The notes: generated from the sequence alone by a model not told the origin. A stretch of DNA of 64,000 nucleotides from an uncultured bacterium (GCA_964387885.1 CAYLYZ010000012.1:6576-70575); one strand, 5' to 3'. Positions 8,071-62,567 are shown, numbered from the stretch's first letter. Translations and numbers: made by a program.

Positions 8071-8144
8071 GCGCCCGTAGCTCAATTGGATAGAGCAGCG
8101 GCCTTCTAAGCCGCAGGTTTCGCGTTCGAGCCGCGACGGGCGTA
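8071..8144 (+). tRNA. tRNA-Arg (anticodon TCT)
   Basis: Cloverleaf read by eye: acceptor GCGCCCG/CGGGCGT, anticodon stem GCGGC/GCCGC with loop CTTCTAA, T-arm TCGCG-TTCGAGC-CGCGA, followed by a T-run. Confidence 0.8.
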
Positions 8145-13883: not shown

Positions 13884-16577
13884 GTGTGTAAATTTACTTC
13901 AGCCATTGCATTCTACCTGTTGTACTGTTGTATTTGTACTCCCATCAGTGCGGAATCGCGAGAAATTCGAATACCGGTTAAGAAAGTAGATACCTTCCCC
14001 ATCCTTCAACCACCGGATTTGGATACATCCCTGAAAAGTAATCCTAACGGACTTGTCAGAGTTAAGCCCGTTACTCCTCAGTTCACACTTGTACTCTCCG
14101 GAGGGGGATTAAAAGGTCTGGCGCATATCGGAGTTTTGCAGTCTCTAACCGAAGCTGGCTTAGTACCCTATGGAATAGCTGCTGTATCATCCGGATCTTT
14201 GATTGGTGGACTATATGCAGGTGGTTTTACAACTGATGAAATTCTTCATCGACTGCGACTGTTAGAACCTGCCAGCCTGATGCTTGACAAACCGGAGCGT
14301 CGAAGTATGTTACTCGCACGTAAACAGGACCTGTCGAGGCACATTATTGAGCTCAGGTTATCAGATGATTTAACTCCAATCCTGCCTGGTGCAATATCCC
14401 CCGGACAAAGACTTTATCAACGACTTTTAGAACTGACATCTGATCTCCCATACAGGTTTGTCAGCGATTGGAGTGAATTGCCGACGAAAATACTCATTCA
14501 GGCTACTGATCTTTGTACTGGAACCGGAGTTGTATTTAAAAATGGCGACATGACGCCGGCTATCCGTAGTTCGATGACAGTTCCTCTTCTTTTCGATCCG
14601 TTTGTCATAGATACTCTGAAACTGATTGATGGTGGAATTACATCAAATATTCCGGTTGATCTTGCACGCGAAATGTTAGATGGAGTAGTTGTAGCGGTAG
14701 ATGTATCAGCAGAATTAAATAGATTCAAAACTCCACCTCAACCCTGGCAAATTGTTGATCAGGTCACAACGATACTTGAGCGGGAGACAAACCGGAAATC
14801 ACGTGCTGAAGCAGATATCTTAGTTATCCCCAATATAATAAACTCTCCCGAAGCCTCAGAGGATTATTTCCAGGTGATTCAAGCGGGACGAGACGCAATG
14901 GATGACTTATTGCAAGATCTAAGAGAACTTCTCGAGTCTCAGGAGGATGAAAAGGATCAAACATCATTCTACATTAAGCATGTTTTAGTTCAGGATGTAC
15001 CGGGTTATGAATATACTGTTCCTGAGTCGTGGACTAATGTAGATGTGGAAATTTTAGAGATAAAGCGTTTTCTGGTTGAGTTGCTGAACTCTGGTGAAGT
15101 AGAGCACTGCTGGGCAGAGTATATTGAAGAAAGTCAATCGCTTCTGTTGAAGATTGAACAAACTCCGATTCTCAATGAGGTGGTTTTTAAAGGCAATTTA
15201 TCAATTGTAGACTCGCTGTTACATTTAAGTTTTTCAGATCAGATCGGGAACAGACTTAATTATGATCAAATAAAAGTTGGTGTTGATAATATTCTTCGAA
15301 TCTATCGGTCGTCCGGATATGCCGTTGCTGGAATCAAGAGCGCGAATCTGAATAGAAATTCCGGAATTTTAACTTTAGCAATTGATGAGGGTAATCTCTG
15401 TTGTGTTGAGTTCAAGGGTTTGAAAAAGGTTCCACTTGGAGCGATTACACGTGAAGTTCCGTTAAAGGAATCCGAACCGGTTAACAGTTACGCTATCCAG
15501 AAAGCGACATCCGCACTCTATAATACCGGGCTATTCAGGAACATAAATCCTGAATTGGTCTATGATCCGGAGGGTAGCGGGAAATGGCATGTTGTTTTTC
15601 ACGTTCAGGAACATATTTCACCACCGATACGGCTCGGGCTGGCTTATCAATCCCAACATCGAACAAGGGGTTTCGGAGAATTAACCTGGCCAGGACCGTT
15701 TAACTACGCGGGGCGCCTCATATTCTACACATCGGTAGGTGAGATCGACACGGAGCATCGAATTGCATATAAAATGGAAATGGGAAATGAACTCTCGGTG
15801 CTGCATAATTTTATTTTTGGATATTCAAGACAATACCGATATCCCTATGATCAGGATCATGAACGGCTTCGCGGTGAAAGATTTGAGGAATCCCGGTGGG
15901 GTGGACTGATTGAGGTCGGAGCACAGGCTGAAAGCTGGGGATTGCTGGCGTTTACTGCACGGATGGAGAGTCATGATAATTATTACGAGACAGAGACAGA
16001 ACATTATCAGCTTTCGGCAATCGGCCTAAAACTCGGGCTCGATAACCTTGATCGTTTTCCATATCCGAACGAGGGAATACAGTTAAAATCGAAATTTGAG
16101 ACTTCAGGCAAATTTATTGGTTCGGATGTAGATTTCTATAAGTTCACAAGCTCAATTGAGACGTATTATCAACTTATCCCCAGATACACTGTTGGAATGA
16201 GATTTATCGGGCGGACGGCGGACAGGACAACACCCCGCGATGAGCGGTTCAGGTTAGGCGGTATACATGAGTTCCCGGGTCTAAATCTGGATGAGAAAGA
16301 GGGCATTATTCAGATGACTGGGGGTATCGATCTTCGCTTTGATCTCCTCAGCCGCGCATTATCTGACACCTATATCGGAATCAGGTCTGATATTGGCGGT
16401 AGTTGGAGCGATCCAGCCGCCCAGATTGTTAAAGATGATTGGATGCGCTCAGTAGCAGTATATATTGCTTTAGACACAGTATTAGGTCCGATTCACCTGC
16501 AGTGGGGGCACCTGTTCCCGAGCGCGACGGTAAGAAAGCAGGACATTATTTTTATTCAAGCGGGAAGTACTTTTTAG
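13884..16577 (+). CDS. patatin-like phospholipase fused to POTRA plus Omp85-family beta-barrel (PlpD-like, type Vd secretion)
   Basis: GTG start with a signal peptide. Patatin oxyanion hole GGGLKG and nucleophile elbow AVSSG, then a DGG segment. The C-terminal barrel ends ...IQAGSTF. Confidence 0.7.
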   Translation: MCKFTSAIAFYLLYCCICTPISAESREIRIPVKKVDTFPILQPPDLDTSLKSNPNGLVRVKPVTPQFTLVLSGGGLKGLAHIGVLQSLTEAGLVPYGIAAVSSGSLIGGLYAGGFTTDEILHRLRLLEPASLMLDKPERRSMLLARKQDLSRHIIELRLSDDLTPILPGAISPGQRLYQRLLELTSDLPYRFVSDWSELPTKILIQATDLCTGTGVVFKNGDMTPAIRSSMTVPLLFDPFVIDTLKLIDGGITSNIPVDLAREMLDGVVVAVDVSAELNRFKTPPQPWQIVDQVTTILERETNRKSRAEADILVIPNIINSPEASEDYFQVIQAGRDAMDDLLQDLRELLESQEDEKDQTSFYIKHVLVQDVPGYEYTVPESWTNVDVEILEIKRFLVELLNSGEVEHCWAEYIEESQSLLLKIEQTPILNEVVFKGNLSIVDSLLHLSFSDQIGNRLNYDQIKVGVDNILRIYRSSGYAVAGIKSANLNRNSGILTLAIDEGNLCCVEFKGLKKVPLGAITREVPLKESEPVNSYAIQKATSALYNTGLFRNINPELVYDPEGSGKWHVVFHVQEHISPPIRLGLAYQSQHRTRGFGELTWPGPFNYAGRLIFYTSVGEIDTEHRIAYKMEMGNELSVLHNFIFGYSRQYRYPYDQDHERLRGERFEESRWGGLIEVGAQAESWGLLAFTARMESHDNYYETETEHYQLSAIGLKLGLDNLDRFPYPNEGIQLKSKFETSGKFIGSDVDFYKFTSSIETYYQLIPRYTVGMRFIGRTADRTTPRDERFRLGGIHEFPGLNLDEKEGIIQMTGGIDLRFDLLSRALSDTYIGIRSDIGGSWSDPAAQIVKDDWMRSVAVYIALDTVLGPIHLQWGHLFPSATVRKQDIIFIQAGSTF

Positions 16578-21119: not shown

Positions 21120-21545
21120 GTGAGTACCCCTGACATACGCTGGATACAACGCTTTAATAACTTCAAAAAGGCGTTTTCACAACTAAAGAAAGCCGTTGAG
21201 TTGGCTCAGACTCGTGACCTGACTGAACTTGAGCAACAAGGATTAATAAAATCCTTTGAGTACACCCACGAACTCGCCTGGAAAACGCTGAAAGACTTTC
21301 TCGAAAATCGTGCTGTTAAGGATTTGTTCGGTTCAAAAGACACAACCCGTGAGGCTTTCAAGACCGGGCTGATTAAGGACGGAGAATCATGGATGGAGAT
21401 GATCAAGAGCCGTAACCTGACCTCGCATACCTATGACGAATCCACCGCGGCTGAAATAGCGAGTGATATCCTTAATTCCTATTTCAACAATTTTCTGTCT
21501 CTTCAAAAAGAACTTGATAAACGCACTATCGAGGAAACTTCATGA
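21120..21545 (+). CDS. HEPN-domain nucleotidyltransferase substrate-binding protein (HI0074/HepT-like toxin)
   Basis: 141 aa. N-terminus D-IRWIQRFNNFKKAF matches the HI0074 family. The Rx4-6H HEPN motif is plausible at RNLTSH. Confidence 0.7.
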   Translation: MSTPDIRWIQRFNNFKKAFSQLKKAVELAQTRDLTELEQQGLIKSFEYTHELAWKTLKDFLENRAVKDLFGSKDTTREAFKTGLIKDGESWMEMIKSRNLTSHTYDESTAAEIASDILNSYFNNFLSLQKELDKRTIEETS

Positions 21546-21898
21546 GGTTTGGTCTCAAGGAAAAAACTATACAACAAATATGCAGCGTTTTCGCCAATTT
21601 TCCTGAAGTAGAGAAAGCCGTCCTATACGGTTCCCGTGCTAAAGGGAATTACAAAAACGGCTCAGATATTGACCTGACTCTTTACGGAGGTGAGGATTTG
21701 ACGCTTAAGGTGTTGTATAGGATCATGAATCAGCTTGATGATTTGCTGTTGCCGTATACTATTGATTTATCTATATTTGGGAGTATTAGCGATGGTGATG
21801 TTGTTGGGCATATTCAAAGGGTGGGGGTTTTGTTTTATAAGAGGGAGAACATTGAAACGAGATTGGGACGTAATCAAGAAAATCCTGGAAATTGCTGA
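21542..21898 (+). CDS. minimal nucleotidyltransferase (MntA/HI0073-like antitoxin)
   Basis: GSRAKGNYKNGSDIDL is a pol-beta-type NTase GS...DxD motif. It overlaps the HEPN gene by 4 bp. Confidence 0.75.
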   Translation: MRFGLKEKTIQQICSVFANFPEVEKAVLYGSRAKGNYKNGSDIDLTLYGGEDLTLKVLYRIMNQLDDLLLPYTIDLSIFGSISDGDVVGHIQRVGVLFYKRENIETRLGRNQENPGNC

Positions 21899-22390: not shown

Positions 22391-22723
22391 ATGACTTTAA
22401 CTGCAATACTATTCTTCATCTTTGAGCTGTTTCAAAATATACAGATTAAGTGTATGCTTGCTGCTCGCAATGCACAGAGTTGGAATCTTGCACCCATTGA
22501 CCGAAAGATGTGGCTAGATGGTCCATGGGCACTATACACAACTTGTATACTCGCGGTTGCGCGATTTGCAGGTATTGCGTTCCTTTTATACTTTGGATAT
22601 AGAACAAGATGGTTCTATCCAATAATACTATGGTGTGTATCCATGCCTGTTTCGGTTATTTTCGTATCGATATTTCAAGTGAAATTCAATATAAGGTATC
22701 TTGCATTCTTGGGTTACTTGTAA
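22391..22723 (+). CDS. hypothetical small membrane protein (3 predicted TM helices)
   Basis: 110-aa ORF, hydrophobic, no recognisable family. Confidence 0.35.
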   Translation: MTLTAILFFIFELFQNIQIKCMLAARNAQSWNLAPIDRKMWLDGPWALYTTCILAVARFAGIAFLLYFGYRTRWFYPIILWCVSMPVSVIFVSIFQVKFNIRYLAFLGYL

Positions 22724-22813
22724 TTCCGATTGTTGGGATTTGGATGTGGTTTACAGTTTGAATGGATCTAATGCAGATGCATTGTCTGGTTCGGTCTTAC
22801 ATGTATCTCCGAA

Positions 22814-23870
22814 TTTAGGGCTGAAGATATTCAGCCCCTACGGGAATATACCCGAATGGAGAGGTGGATTCGCTTATACCGGAAATTTTATCATGTCAGG
22901 GGCAGGAAATGAAAAGCAAGAATTAAATAAATATGAAATACATAAAACGAGCTTCCAATGACTTACAATCCCGAAAAACACCATCGCAGATCCATTCGAT
23001 TGAAGGAATATGATTACTCGAGCGGAGGTGGGTATTATCTGACGATTGATTCGAATAACCGGGAATGTCTGTTTGGTGAGGTGACAAATAAAGAAATGAT
23101 TCCGAATGAGGCCGGTCTGGTTGTTCGTAAATGCTGGTTGGAAATTCCCAGTCATTATCCCAATGTTGTTCTGGATGAATTCATCGTTATGCCGAATCAT
23201 GTTCATGGGATCGTTTTTATTGTTGATGAATCTTCTATGTCAAAACGTAGTAAACGTTCCGTAGGGGCTGAATATCTTCAGCCCTGTTCGAAGAAAAACA
23301 CAGTATCAGGTTTGTCAGGAAATAGGGTTGAAAATATTCAACCCCTACATGGATCGTGTTCGAATACCAATGCGGATTCTGTTTTGCCGGGGAAAAGGGT
23401 TGAAGGTGTTCAACCCAAACTGAATAGGTTTCAGAAGGTTATCCCTGGTTCAATTGGATCTATTGTACGAGGATTGAAAATTGGCGTCACCAAATGGTTT
23501 CGTCAGAACACGGATGTTTATACGGTTTGGCAACGGAATTATTACGAACATGTCATTCGTAACGAACAGGAATTGAACAGCATACGTGAATATATATTGA
23601 ATAATCCGTTGCGATGGGAATTAGACCGGGAACATCCGGATGAATGGGTGATGGGGTGAAAATGGTCAATCCCTGGGTGTAGGGGCTGAAGATATTCAGC
23701 CCTGTTCGAATGGCAATGTAGATTCTCGTTTTTAGGGATTTAGGGCTGAAAATATTCAGCCCCTACGGAATGGTGACGCGGATTCCTGTTTTGTCGGGGA
23801 ATGGGTTGAAGATATTCAACCCCTACGGAATGGCAACACAGATTCCGGTTTGTCAGGATATAGGATTGGG
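22814..23870 (+). mobile_element. REPtron: RAYT gene with cognate REP units upstream (22814-22859), inside the ORF (23262-23420) and as a 3-unit tandem array downstream (23677-23870)
   Basis: 62-nt unit containing a GGGCTGAAGATATTCAGCCC or GGGTTGAAGATATTCAACCC hairpin followed by CTACGGAATGG. Confidence 0.75.
22958..23659 (+). CDS. REP-associated tyrosine transposase (RAYT, IS200/IS605-like Y1 HuH transposase)
   Basis: HuH motif MPNHVHGIVFI. C-terminal WQRNYYEHVIRNEQELNSIREYILNNPLRW matches the RAYT catalytic-Tyr motif. At 233 aa it is ~55 aa longer than typical RAYTs, owing to REP-derived sequence between the two motifs. Confidence 0.8.
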   Translation: MTYNPEKHHRRSIRLKEYDYSSGGGYYLTIDSNNRECLFGEVTNKEMIPNEAGLVVRKCWLEIPSHYPNVVLDEFIVMPNHVHGIVFIVDESSMSKRSKRSVGAEYLQPCSKKNTVSGLSGNRVENIQPLHGSCSNTNADSVLPGKRVEGVQPKLNRFQKVIPGSIGSIVRGLKIGVTKWFRQNTDVYTVWQRNYYEHVIRNEQELNSIREYILNNPLRWELDREHPDEWVMG

Positions 23871-23961
23871 TACCCACCCGGGAAAATAAAACACATCTGT
23901 TGTAATCCTGTTATATTCTTTGTATCGTTTCTTGTATAAACAAAATTATGAAGGAGCACTC

Positions 23962-25248
23962 ATGGATACATTCGACCGCCTCTTGCAGTACATCAATTCT
24001 CTCAATATTATCGACACTCACGAGCATCTTGGATTCGAATCTGACCGGGTTAAGGATGAGGATGTGTTCGAGGAATGGTTGGAGCATTATTTCTCTTGTG
24101 ACCTGCATTCCGCGGGATTATCAGAAAAGGAATTAGGCTTTGTCAGAGATAGCTCAAAAGATATTCACGAACGCTGGAAAAAAGTTGAACCTTACTGGCA
24201 TGCTGCGGAATCTACCGGATATGGGAGAGCACTCTCGATTGCAGCTCGGGATATTTATGGGATCGAATCGATAAACTCAAATACAATAGGTGAGTTGAAC
24301 GATAGATTCAGGGACGCTAAAGAAAAGGGTGGTCATTACGACAATGTGCTAAAAGGAAAATCGAAAATTGATCTCTCTATTGTCGATTCTATGCCGATTC
24401 CTTACCGTGAACCACCACATCCATTTGTGTTTACGCTACATACAAACATCTTTTTACTGACGAATCATATCAATCAATTGAGGGAAACGGGTGCAGTGGT
24501 TGATATGAGTGTACATACTCTTTCGGATTGGATGGATGTTACCCGCAAGTATATTGAAAAATTCATAAATGGGAAATCAAGAGTCGTCTGCCTGAAGAGC
24601 TCAATTGCCTACGAGAGAAGTCTTCGATTTGATAAGGTAACCTATGCGGAAGCTGAAAAGGCTTTTAATGAACTCTTCGAGGACAGGAACTTAGCAAAGT
24701 ACCGTCCGACTGTGAAACTTTCCAAGGTTTTTTCTGACTACATGATGCATTTCATATGCAAAGTAGCGGATGACAACCGCATACCGTTTCAGATTCACAC
24801 TGGAATTCAGGAGGGAACAGGTAATATTATTTACGACTCAAATCCGACACTCCTAAGCAATCTTTTCCTTGAATATCAGAATGTGAAATTTGATATTTTC
24901 CACATGGGTTATCCTTATGTAATGGAAATGGGAACTCTTGCCAAAAATTTCCAAAACGTCTTCCTCGATATGTGCTGGGGGCATATTATCAGCCCGGAAG
25001 CCGCTCGACGCGCCTTGATTGAATGGCTGGATGTTGTTCCCGCAAATAAGATTCATGCATTCGGCGGGGATTACTGCTTTGTAGATGGTGTTTACGGGCA
25101 TCAATACCTCGCCCGCAGGAATGTAGCGTTTTCTCTGGCATATAAGGTTAACGACGGTTCGATAAGTATTTCGCGAGCGGAAGAGATCGCAAAATGGATG
25201 TTTCGTGATAATCCGATTGAACTGTTCAAGCTGGAGAGGTTTTTGTAA
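23962..25248 (+). CDS. amidohydrolase-family (TIM-barrel metal-dependent hydrolase) protein
   Basis: AAGGAG RBS. IDTHEHL metal-binding motif near the N-terminus, plus C-terminal H/D residues. Substrate unknown. Confidence 0.6.
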   Translation: MDTFDRLLQYINSLNIIDTHEHLGFESDRVKDEDVFEEWLEHYFSCDLHSAGLSEKELGFVRDSSKDIHERWKKVEPYWHAAESTGYGRALSIAARDIYGIESINSNTIGELNDRFRDAKEKGGHYDNVLKGKSKIDLSIVDSMPIPYREPPHPFVFTLHTNIFLLTNHINQLRETGAVVDMSVHTLSDWMDVTRKYIEKFINGKSRVVCLKSSIAYERSLRFDKVTYAEAEKAFNELFEDRNLAKYRPTVKLSKVFSDYMMHFICKVADDNRIPFQIHTGIQEGTGNIIYDSNPTLLSNLFLEYQNVKFDIFHMGYPYVMEMGTLAKNFQNVFLDMCWGHIISPEAARRALIEWLDVVPANKIHAFGGDYCFVDGVYGHQYLARRNVAFSLAYKVNDGSISISRAEEIAKWMFRDNPIELFKLERFL

Positions 25249-25274
25249 GTGGTAATTCCACTTTTTCAAAAGGT

Positions 25275-25375
25275 AACATACTTTCCGTAGGGGCTGAAAA
25301 TCTTCAGCCCTGTTCGAATGGGAACACGGATTCAATTTTGTCGGGAATTAGGGTTGAATATTTTCAACCCCTACA
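25275..25375. repeat. REP (RAYT-cognate family), 1.5 units
   Basis: CCGTAGGGGCTGAAAATCTTCAGCCCTGTTCGAATGG ... GGGTTGAATATTTTCAACCCCTACAG. Confidence 0.8.
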
Positions 25376-25670
25376 GAACAAGTACGATGGGAGGCGATTG
25401 AAGGTATAGTGTCACCATTCCCGGTTTCGTGAAGTTTCCCTCCCCTTCCTCTTACACTCACCACAATTTTCCCTAATAACTCTGCAAAATTCAAACTCCT
25501 TTACAAAAAACCTCACAATTCTTCTTGACTTTTTGTATTTATTGTATATATTGAGCATGTACAAAGAGTACAAAAGTCCATTTCGGATATTGGCGTGTTA
25601 GGAGATTGCTTCACTTCGTTCGCAATGACGTACTTTTGAGAAATTCTAAATTATAAAGAGGATTGGGAAA

Positions 25671-40753: not shown

Positions 40754-41027
40754 GGCTGTGCCCCACCTTCGATCGTCTCCGTACTGACGTTTACATTAAC
40801 CTCCGACTGATGCCCGGCTATCCCACGGCACCCGGACAAAAACGCTTACCGCTGCTACCTTCCGGTCCTGACGGGGTTCGGCGCGAGTCCGCTGCGTGGG
40901 ACCAGACCTTTAACGCCGTCGAATTAATGCAACTTCAGGGGAGGGGAAACCTCAATGTGGGTATTCAACCCCGCTATAGCGGATTGCGGGTTAAAGGGCA
41001 CCGCTAGCTCCCCGTCTAGCACAGCCA
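40754..41027 (-). ncRNA. ffs: signal recognition particle RNA, long form with Alu domain (Bacillus scRNA type)
   Basis: Minus-strand 5' end GCUAGACGGGGAGCUAGCGGUGCCCUUUAACCCGCAAUCCGCUAUAGC matches B. subtilis scRNA. It contains the S-domain motif GUCAGGACCGGAAGGUAGCAGC. The 3' GCACAGCC pairs with the 5' GGCUGUGC. It lies upstream of dnaX, the conserved synteny. Confidence 0.8.
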
Positions 41028-41150: not shown

Positions 41151-41223
41151 TGGAGCTGAGCGGGCTCGAACCGCCGACCTGTACGTTGCGAACGTACCGC
41201 TCTCCCAGCTGAGCTACAGCCCC
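41151..41223 (-). tRNA. tRNA-Ala (anticodon CGC)
   Basis: GGGGCUGUAGCUCAGCUGGGAGAGCG... with a G3:U70 pair. Anticodon loop UUCGCAA. T-arm GGTTCGAGCCCGC. Confidence 0.8.
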
Positions 41224-62495: not shown

Positions 62496-62567
62496 AGCGA
62501 GAGACGGGATTCGGACCCGCGACCTTCACGTTGGCAACGTGATACTCTACCGCTGAGTTACTCTCGC
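62496..62567 (-). tRNA. tRNA-Gly (anticodon GCC)
   Basis: GCGAGAGUAACUCAGCGGUAGAGUAUCACGUUGCCAACGUGAAGGUCGCGGGUCCGAAUCCCGUCUCUCGCU. Anticodon loop UUGCCAA. Discriminator U. Confidence 0.8.

Follow-up and report, generated by a model that had tools for sequence, protein, structure and literature searches.

In-frame REP sequences within a RAYT gene of TnpA_REP subclass 2.4 type from an uncultured bacterium

A 64-kb stretch of DNA from an uncultured bacterium that probably belongs to the FCB group was analysed as a whole and is here called the window. It contains a REPtron in which genuine REP units stand in frame inside the coding sequence of the RAYT gene, between the codons for the HuH motif and those for the catalytic tyrosine; three hairpins lie within the ORF, in agreement with the original prediction for this locus. 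Judged by its motifs and by homologues that share its architecture, the putative transposase belongs to TnpA_REP subclass 2.4 of Quentin, Siguier, Chandler and Fichant 2018 (BMC Genomics 19:475, PMC6006769), which is equivalent to RAYT group 4 of Bertels et al. 2017 (PMC5581495). The presence of REPs in frame in their own RAYT is ordinary for this lineage and was published in 2018, and the window supplies a further metagenomic member. Taken as a whole, the locus is probably a REPtron with a subclass 2.4 transposase whose loop REPs are a tolerated passenger.

The RAYT gene and its product

The tnpA_REP/RAYT gene occupies positions 22958..23659 on the plus strand, where the reading frame is open throughout and its translation gives a product of 233 aa followed by a stop, with a Y1 HUH fold and motifs of the subclass 2.4 type. 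A 100% identical copy of the gene's DNA was recovered on contigs of at least four metagenome datasets, so the open frame is not an assembly accident. The source samples of this DNA include JGI 3300007511, 3300013118 and 3300009320. A homologue search with the protein returned about 8,000 matches, several of them called RayT by their sources, and the homologues align with it over the full length (95-100% coverage). Both curated profiles stayed below threshold: Pfam PF01797 (Y1_Tnp) scored 22.1 against a cut-off of 23 and matched only the C-terminal half of the RAYT, and NCBIfam NF047646 (REP_Tyr_transpos) gave 56.3 bits against a cut-off of 80, with an E-value of 3e-15. These low scores are presumably due to the insertion, which splits the domain, and with both profiles under threshold the family call was made on fold search and motifs. 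In the fold search of the structural model against the PDB the top match was 4er8_A, TnpA_REP bound to REP (probability 1.00), followed by the TnpA structures of IS608 and ISDra2; the sequence match to 4er8 is weak.

The HuH motif is retained, as had been predicted, in the form of H81-V82-H83 within MPNHVHG (23198..23206, plus strand), with both histidines invariant in the homologue alignment. The catalytic tyrosine had been assigned to the string NYYEHVIRNE, an assignment that has to be revised. The segment VWQRNYYEHVIR (residues 190-201), which holds the WQ, aligns with W94-Q95...E100-H101...R104 of the E. coli TnpA_REP, and W94, Q95, E100, H101 and R104 are the residues of that enzyme that recognize the GTAG (PMC6006769). 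The motif WQRNYYEH (residues 191-198; 23528..23551, plus strand) is thus homologous to the E. coli residues W94, Q95, E100 and H101 that contact the GTAG foot. The catalytic tyrosine is instead Y212, the first residue of the Y motif YILNNP (residues 212-217; 23591..23608, plus strand), which stands opposite the catalytic Y115 of the E. coli protein. Across an alignment of 29 sequences including the window protein, H81, H83, W191, Q192, R193, Y212, I213, N216 and P217 are invariant. Only 16 residues follow YILNNP, and the protein lacks a subclass-specific C-terminal extension.

In an AF2 model built with 29 homologues in the alignment the core has a pLDDT above 90. The strand beta3 spans residues 81-88 and the helix alphaC residues 166-184, with a low-pLDDT loop in between, and pLDDT falls below 50 across most of residues 97-156; the REP-encoded loop of the RAYT is accordingly predicted to be disordered.

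The window RAYT shares with the TnpA proteins of the IS200/IS605 family (IS608, ISDra2) the Y1 HUH fold and, presumably, the recognition of hairpins in single-stranded DNA. Unlike the REPs considered here, the subterminal hairpins of those insertion sequences bound the element outside tnpA, and the elements are multicopy and often accompanied by tnpB. An IS200/IS605 insertion sequence was ruled out by the single gene copy (a tblastn search for a second RAYT copy in the 64-kb window gave REP-derived matches only), by the lack of a tnpB among the neighbors of the gene, and by the REP arrays on its flanks.

REP units inside and around the gene

A search of the 64 kb with GGGYTGAANNTRTTCARCCC, allowing at most one mismatch, found 9 hairpin sites where 0 were expected from 100 shuffles; the pattern of these nine sites can also be written GGGYTGAAnnTrTTCARCCC. 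With a degenerate copy added, 10 copies share the consensus GGGYTGAAnnnnTTCARCCC, and all of them fall at 22.8-25.4 kb, no further copy being found elsewhere in the 64 kb. The nine hairpins start at 22818 upstream of the gene, at 23265, 23325 and 23397 within the ORF, at 23683, 23743 and 23803 downstream of it, and at 25291 and 25351 past the next gene. GTAG or CTAC feet and GGG...CCC stem bases are present at 22818, 23683, 23743 and 23803, none of them more than about 1 kb away from the gene. The units had been described as 62 nt long; the period is 60 nt by TRF, and 72 nt separate the second internal hairpin from the third.

Upstream, the hairpin GGGCTGAAGATATTCAGCCC (22818-22837) is followed by CTAC at 22838-22841, so that the feature as a whole (22818..22841, minus strand) carries its GTAG foot on the minus strand. 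A full unit had been predicted at this place and three tandem units downstream; the three downstream units are present, whereas the upstream copy has some 15 nt beside its hairpin and falls short of a full unit. A degenerate hairpin with three mismatches, GGGGTGAAAATGGTCAATCC (23653..23672, plus strand), overlaps the stop codon of the RAYT gene. It is followed by the downstream array (23679..23851, plus strand), with three REP units at a 60-nt period in the same order and orientation as in the intragenic array: the first on the plus strand (GTAG 23679-23682, hairpin 23683-23702), the second and third on the minus strand (hairpins 23743-23762 and 23803-23822, each with CTAC). A second extragenic REPIN (25233..25376, plus strand) comprises GTAG at 25287-25290, hairpins at 25291-25310 and 25351-25370 and CTAC at 25371-25374, and it adjoins and overlaps the stop codon of an amidohydrolase gene. 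In total the window has seven extragenic REPs, one of them degenerate, with two inverted dimers among them and all within 2.6 kb of the gene; the local REP family looks small and old.

Within the gene, the REP-derived stretch SKRSKRSVGAEYLQPCSKKNTVSGLSGNRVENIQPLHGSCSNTNADSVLPGKRVEGVQPKLN covers 186 nt (23240..23425, plus strand; codons 95-156) and encodes the predicted disordered loop that leads from beta3 to alphaC. The interval first proposed, 23262-23420, was correct as to its REP-derived nature and slightly too narrow in extent. The stretch contains a REPIN (23261..23348, plus strand) made up of GTAG at 23261-23264, a hairpin at 23265-23284, a 40-nt spacer, a second hairpin at 23325-23344 and CTAC at 23345-23348. 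When oriented by the GTAG foot, the first hairpin is on the plus and the second on the minus strand, the arrangement of an inverted REP dimer, and as single-stranded DNA the two halves pair into one long hairpin with a minimum free energy of -32.7 kcal/mol (z -4.8). The third intragenic hairpin, GGGTTGAAGGTGTTCAACCC (23397..23416, plus strand), is devoid of a GTAG or CTAC foot and immediately precedes the conserved NRFQKVIP segment, in the position of the single 'resident' hairpin of short homologues.

The internal copies are full REP units, more than bare hairpins. Positions 23240-23349 are identical to 25266-25375 at 91/110 positions, and 23261-23425 aligns with the downstream array at 23679-23831 with 125/169 identities in a colinear manner, the three hairpins having the same order and orientation in both. 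The linkers TGTTCGAA and CTACGGAATGG occur among the internal units, which confirms an earlier observation. A recent self-insertion, one of two origins originally proposed, is disfavored by the divergence of the copies: the internal copy is 74-83% identical to the extragenic ones, which is about as diverged as these are from one another (80%). When the protein is compared with the minimal homologue P0028 (173 aa), the gaps amount to 55 aa, all of them between the HuH motif and the conserved NxFQKxIP; this bears out the estimate that the spacer is some 55 aa longer. The HuH-to-Y distance of the window RAYT is 129 aa.

Since short reads assemble repeats poorly, it might be asked whether the likeness of the loop to REPs arose by chance, from low complexity or from repeats collapsed during assembly. 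The nine hairpins against an expectation of none, the alignments of 110 nt and 165 nt that tie the internal stretch to the extragenic copies, and the identity of the sequence in four datasets all speak against such an origin, as does the occurrence of the same architecture in hundreds of independent genomes, which has also been published (PMC6006769). We regard this explanation as having next to no likelihood.

A scan of positions 22600-24000 for promoters and terminators gave counts no higher than those of shuffles, so that a role of the REPs as intrinsic terminators is unsupported. A scan of the window with Rfam gave no match in the REP/RAYT region.

The published subclass and a survey of homologues

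[quoted passage not shown] These insertions are placed in the beta3/alphaC loop, differ among members in length as well as in sequence, and were modelled by the authors as a peripheral extension (PMC6006769). The motifs of the subclass are NH[IFV]H (the HuH form in their Table 1), WQ and YIxNNP, its members are further defined by their place in the subclass 2.4 clade of the authors' phylogeny or MCL clustering and by an 8-aa insertion at the end of alphaB, and the median HuH-to-Y distance is 88 aa (PMC6006769). Its REPs have either a GT[AG]G foot with three G-C pairs at the base of the stem or a 'double foot' (PMC6006769), and the 16-mers flanking group 4 genes occur about 14 times per replicon (PMC5581495). 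A literature search for later papers on REP insertions inside subclass 2.4 genes found none.

The window RAYT resembles this subclass in having NHVH, WQ and YILNNP, in its want of a C-terminal extension, and in a variable beta3-alphaC insertion that consists of in-frame REP sequence; its flanking REPs have the GT[AG]G foot, and three G-C pairs form the bases of their stems. Subclass 2.4 is scattered over many phyla and has a modest REP family, and the REP family seen in the window is likewise modest. We found no difference in kind: the window loop is longer (129 aa from HuH to Y against the median of 88), and in it a complete REPIN is joined by a footless hairpin, the whole being colinear with the array downstream of the gene. 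The REPs had originally been thought unusual for RAYT systems in their intragenic position, a view that does not hold, as such REPs have been a hallmark of subclass 2.4 since 2018 (PMC6006769) and perfect loop palindromes are present in 87-91% of relatives in the two samples described below.

Two other systems are informative by comparison. The E. coli TnpA_REP of the REP-BIME system (subclass 2.2; 4ER8, PMC3479197) is the best structural match and is like the window RAYT in its Y1 HUH fold, in the GTAG-foot residues and the catalytic Tyr on helix alphaD, both of which are kept, and in being encoded by a gene flanked by cognate REPs. Unlike the window gene, it has no internal REP and a HuH-to-Y distance of about 54 aa, and the protein has a C-terminal extension; the stems of the E. 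coli REPs are bulged and imperfect, and there are hundreds of copies. The Rickettsia palindromic elements (RPE) and the intragenic GTAG/CGTC REPs (Di Nocera et al. 2013, PMC3733652) are likewise short palindromes that are in frame, translated and tolerated in surface loops, but their hosts are unrelated genes such as uvrA and dnaE, whereas in the window the REPs are hosted by the gene of their own presumed transposase, at a site that is conserved throughout the family.

We surveyed close homologues in the best 120 of the approximately 8,000 matches (44-54% identity, 173-319 aa). In nearly all of these 120, V-G-[A/V]-x-N-[F/I]-x-P-[L] occurs in the loop, from once to about nine times, and 103 of the 118 in which the strict motif G[AV]xxxxP was scored have it there at least once. 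The segment from HuH to NYYEH ranges from 63 to 147 aa across homologues, with up to about nine repeats, and the homologue loops are hypervariable in both length and sequence. In view of this hypervariability and of the predicted disorder of the segment, the other origin first proposed, namely that the REPs were domesticated as a protein linker, is unsupported. The residue combinations in the loop are restricted to those that permit base-pairing in the DNA: V-Q..E is observed 44 times against 7 expected and A-K..S 37 times against 10, whereas V-Q..S is observed 0 times against 8.5.

The DNA of the loops was examined in a multi-phylum set of 75 genes out of 80 genome loci, in which perfect stems of at least 7 bp were scored. 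Such a stem was found in 68 of the 75 genes, with a median of 11, against a median of 5 in control coding DNA of the same genes, where none reached 10; seven intact genes were without a loop hairpin. Most of the loop hairpins have a double foot and follow the pattern GTAGGGGC...GCCCCTAC. In this set GTAGGG is read 56 times in the V-G frame, 9 times in the R-G frame and never in the TAG frame. Complete genomes in which subclass 2.4 genes were encountered include those of gamma proteobacterium HdN1 (FP929140) and Planktothrix (CP136572). It had been suggested that related genomes be checked for the insertion, and this check, with a loop palindrome in 103 of the 118 close homologues and in 68 of the 75 multi-phylum genes, places the window gene among its kin. 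A lineage-typical variable loop with no significant likeness to REPs had been named as the finding that would speak against the initial reading; the loop is indeed lineage-typical, but its likeness to REPs is far from insignificant, as it is REP DNA across the lineage.

In a search for exact arms within 10 kb, the same hairpin was also found outside the gene in 21 of the 75 cases, and 47 of the 68 hairpin-bearing genes had no second exact-arm copy within that distance. BLAST comparisons at 19 loci showed the loop hairpin to be 92-100% identical to REPs that lie mostly tens to hundreds of nucleotides from the gene, and therefore the intragenic hairpin tracks the cognate REP of each genome. In four homologues (P0069, P0076, L005 and L181) extra REPs occupy a second site, just before the WQ motif. 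Identical 28-nt double-foot palindromes are found in genes whose core amino-acid identity is 46-73%, and in the same genes between 1/33 and 22/39 of the conserved four-fold codons agree at the third position, which indicates saturated synonymous sites. The passenger reading alone leaves the perfect palindromes of such genes without explanation.

A metagenome scan for GTAGGGGYTGAA....TTCARCCC, in which the matches listed came from unrelated samples and none from the source datasets, located the hairpin type on at least 120 contigs. Among the matches listed, 129 of 135 hairpin sites were on contigs without a detectable RAYT, which shows that this hairpin type is widely dispersed and mostly outside RAYT genes.

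The survey also bears on whether the window gene is decaying, that is, a RAYT inactivated by REP invasion and a pseudogene in the making. The domain-model scores under the curated cut-offs would fit such a course, as would the few and diverged (74-83%) local REPs and the degenerate REP on the stop codon. However, the gene has an open frame of 233 aa that is covered to 95-100% in alignments with homologues, it keeps every residue that is invariant in the 29-sequence alignment, and its modelled core has a pLDDT above 90. Homologues have loops that are as long or longer (up to 147 aa), and the identical sequence is found in at least four assemblies. Decay is consequently an improbable description of this gene.

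Entry and persistence of the intragenic REPs

In subclass 2.4 the loop DNA consists of the cognate REP palindrome, with a GTAG foot, a stem based on G/C pairs and often a CTAC foot, which is translated as V-G-[A/V]-x-x-x-x-P-[L/T]. By analogy with the E. coli TnpA_REP (PMC3479197), the window RAYT is expected to bind REP hairpins in single-stranded DNA, with the GTAG foot read by the WQ...EH...R motif. Cleavage and rejoining would then proceed via Y212 and a metal bound by the HuH motif, on the model of the same subclass 2.2 enzyme. REP units would tend to pile up where REPs already stand, beside the gene or inside it. One route into the gene could have been RAYT-mediated insertion with a preference for action in cis; another could have been recombination with the colinear array that lies 420 bp downstream, or conversion by it. 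Intragenic copies may survive only in the permissive loop, when they are in frame (as units of 60 or 72 nt would be) and outside the TAG-reading frame, and the extra 55-62 residues would then be a tolerated disordered passenger. It is conceivable that the third hairpin is the ancestral resident and that the first two were added later by insertion of a REPIN; the colinearity of all three hairpins with the downstream array equally allows conversion of the whole block.

An alternative to the passenger is a selected cis-element: the intragenic REP could be a site at which the RAYT, or a REP-binding host factor, acts on the gene itself or its mRNA in autoregulation or self-limitation, or it could be a heritable master copy that travels with the gene and seeds the REP family. 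In favor of this proposal, the loop hairpin is near-universal in homologues, identical 28-nt palindromes persist across phyla despite the saturation of synonymous sites, and the 47 hairpin-bearing genes mentioned above stand without a second exact-arm copy within 10 kb. On the other hand, seven of the 75 intact genes are devoid of such a hairpin, and the second-site REPs before the WQ in a few homologues show ongoing de novo insertion and not a fixed element. Conversion between the two arms can likewise keep a palindrome perfect, as can its repeated replacement by members of a REP family whose sequence the enzyme constrains. Moreover, the 129 of 135 sites without a RAYT on the contig, among the metagenome matches listed, imply a REP family that is independent of the gene copy. 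On balance a selected element appears unlikely, with a chance that is nevertheless worth keeping in view, and the tolerated passenger is the reading we prefer.

The window provides a clean and well-resolved example, with its REPIN and resident hairpin in the same linear order as the neighboring array, of a question that concerns the entire subclass, namely why a family of transposases keeps its own substrate within its coding sequence. If the intragenic REP were functional, as an autoregulatory site or as a master copy, it would show how the specificity of REP and RAYT stays linked over long evolution and horizontal transfer. The master copy would in that case be inherited both vertically and horizontally, with the extragenic REPs seeded from it, and this would be of interest to researchers of REPINs, RAYTs and HUH enzymes alike.

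In the frame that corresponds to that of the gene, the 25.3-kb REPIN translates to ...FQPLQNKY, which recalls PLQNKYQKIIP of homologues; as this extends just four residues past the REP foot, it was set aside as too short to serve as evidence. One further observation favors the selected element. The 54-nt 5' flank of the same REPIN resembles RAYT codons 84-101, which include the conserved beta3 strand, with 34/54 positions identical, a level that just 2 of 127,894 window positions equal; the first 33 nt alone match at 18/33, a level equalled by about 6 in 10,000 window positions. This resemblance of the flank to RAYT coding sequence suggests that part of the gene was copied out to the site of the 25.3-kb REPIN.

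Recurrent insertion of REPs into RAYT genes

Beyond the site that is occupied in the window RAYT gene by the in-frame REP-derived stretch (23240-23425), the homologous proteins P0069 and P0076 display a second in-frame insertion site, located between helix alphaC and the GTAG-recognizing WQ motif. Relatives with REP sequence at this alphaC-WQ site, exemplified by WFRNNTVGAENFLPLQTVWQ, are encoded at the genomic loci L005 (2037-2714) and L181 (1829-2098). The presence of these second-site REPs in some relatives shows that insertion into RAYT genes has been recurrent and independent. The final codons of the window RAYT gene, together with its stop codon, overlap a degenerate REP hairpin, GGGGTGAAAATGGTCAATCC (23653-23672), and the C-terminal end of the gene therefore continues into a decayed REP.

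Identical palindromes in divergent RAYT genes

One exact 28-nt palindrome with a double foot is found inside RAYT genes from different phyla, namely those at L011, L012, L013, L059 (two genes) and L081, and such exact sharing also extends to the genes at L017, L020, L033 and L049; an example is GTAGGGGCGAAAAATTTTTCGCCCCTAC. The palindrome is shared despite saturation at synonymous sites and protein identities of only 46-73%. The two L059 paralogues have the palindrome in common and differ in its outer arms, with stems of 18 and 19 bp.

RAYT-like sequence outside intact genes

In the window, an extragenic REPIN with its 5' flank (25233-25376) lies 3' of the amidohydrolase gene, whose stop codon (25246-25248) falls within this flank. 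Its likeness to the internal stretch of the RAYT extends beyond the REPIN itself: at 34 of 54 positions the 54-nt flank matches the sequence coding for RAYT residues 84-101, a segment that takes in the conserved beta3 strand. The RAYT-equivalent frame is open throughout the element and ends in ...FQPLQNKY, which resembles PLQNKYQKIIP of RAYT homologues. This element may have been exported as a copy from a RAYT gene, or it may be a relic of such a gene. At L081 a 173-nt piece (14880-15052), 92% identical to the RAYT gene and 4.2 kb from the intact copy, spans the hairpin and the HuH-coding part and is thus a RAYT gene fragment or pseudogene copy.

Gene neighborhood and host

Just 5' of the RAYT region two small overlapping genes (21120-21898), coding for NTase_sub_bind (141 aa) and NTP_transf_2/Polbeta (118 aa) proteins, constitute a HepT/MNT-like toxin-antitoxin pair, which is followed by a DUF2513 gene. 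A gene for a NACHT/nSTAND3 NTPase starts near 32.4 kb. The window also contains a bacterial large SRP RNA (40756-41024, minus strand; Rfam RF01854, 157.6 bits) and tRNA genes at 8071-8144 (plus strand), 41151-41223 and 62496-62567 (both minus strand). Por_Secre_tail (type IX secretion) domains in several neighboring proteins suggest an FCB-group host.
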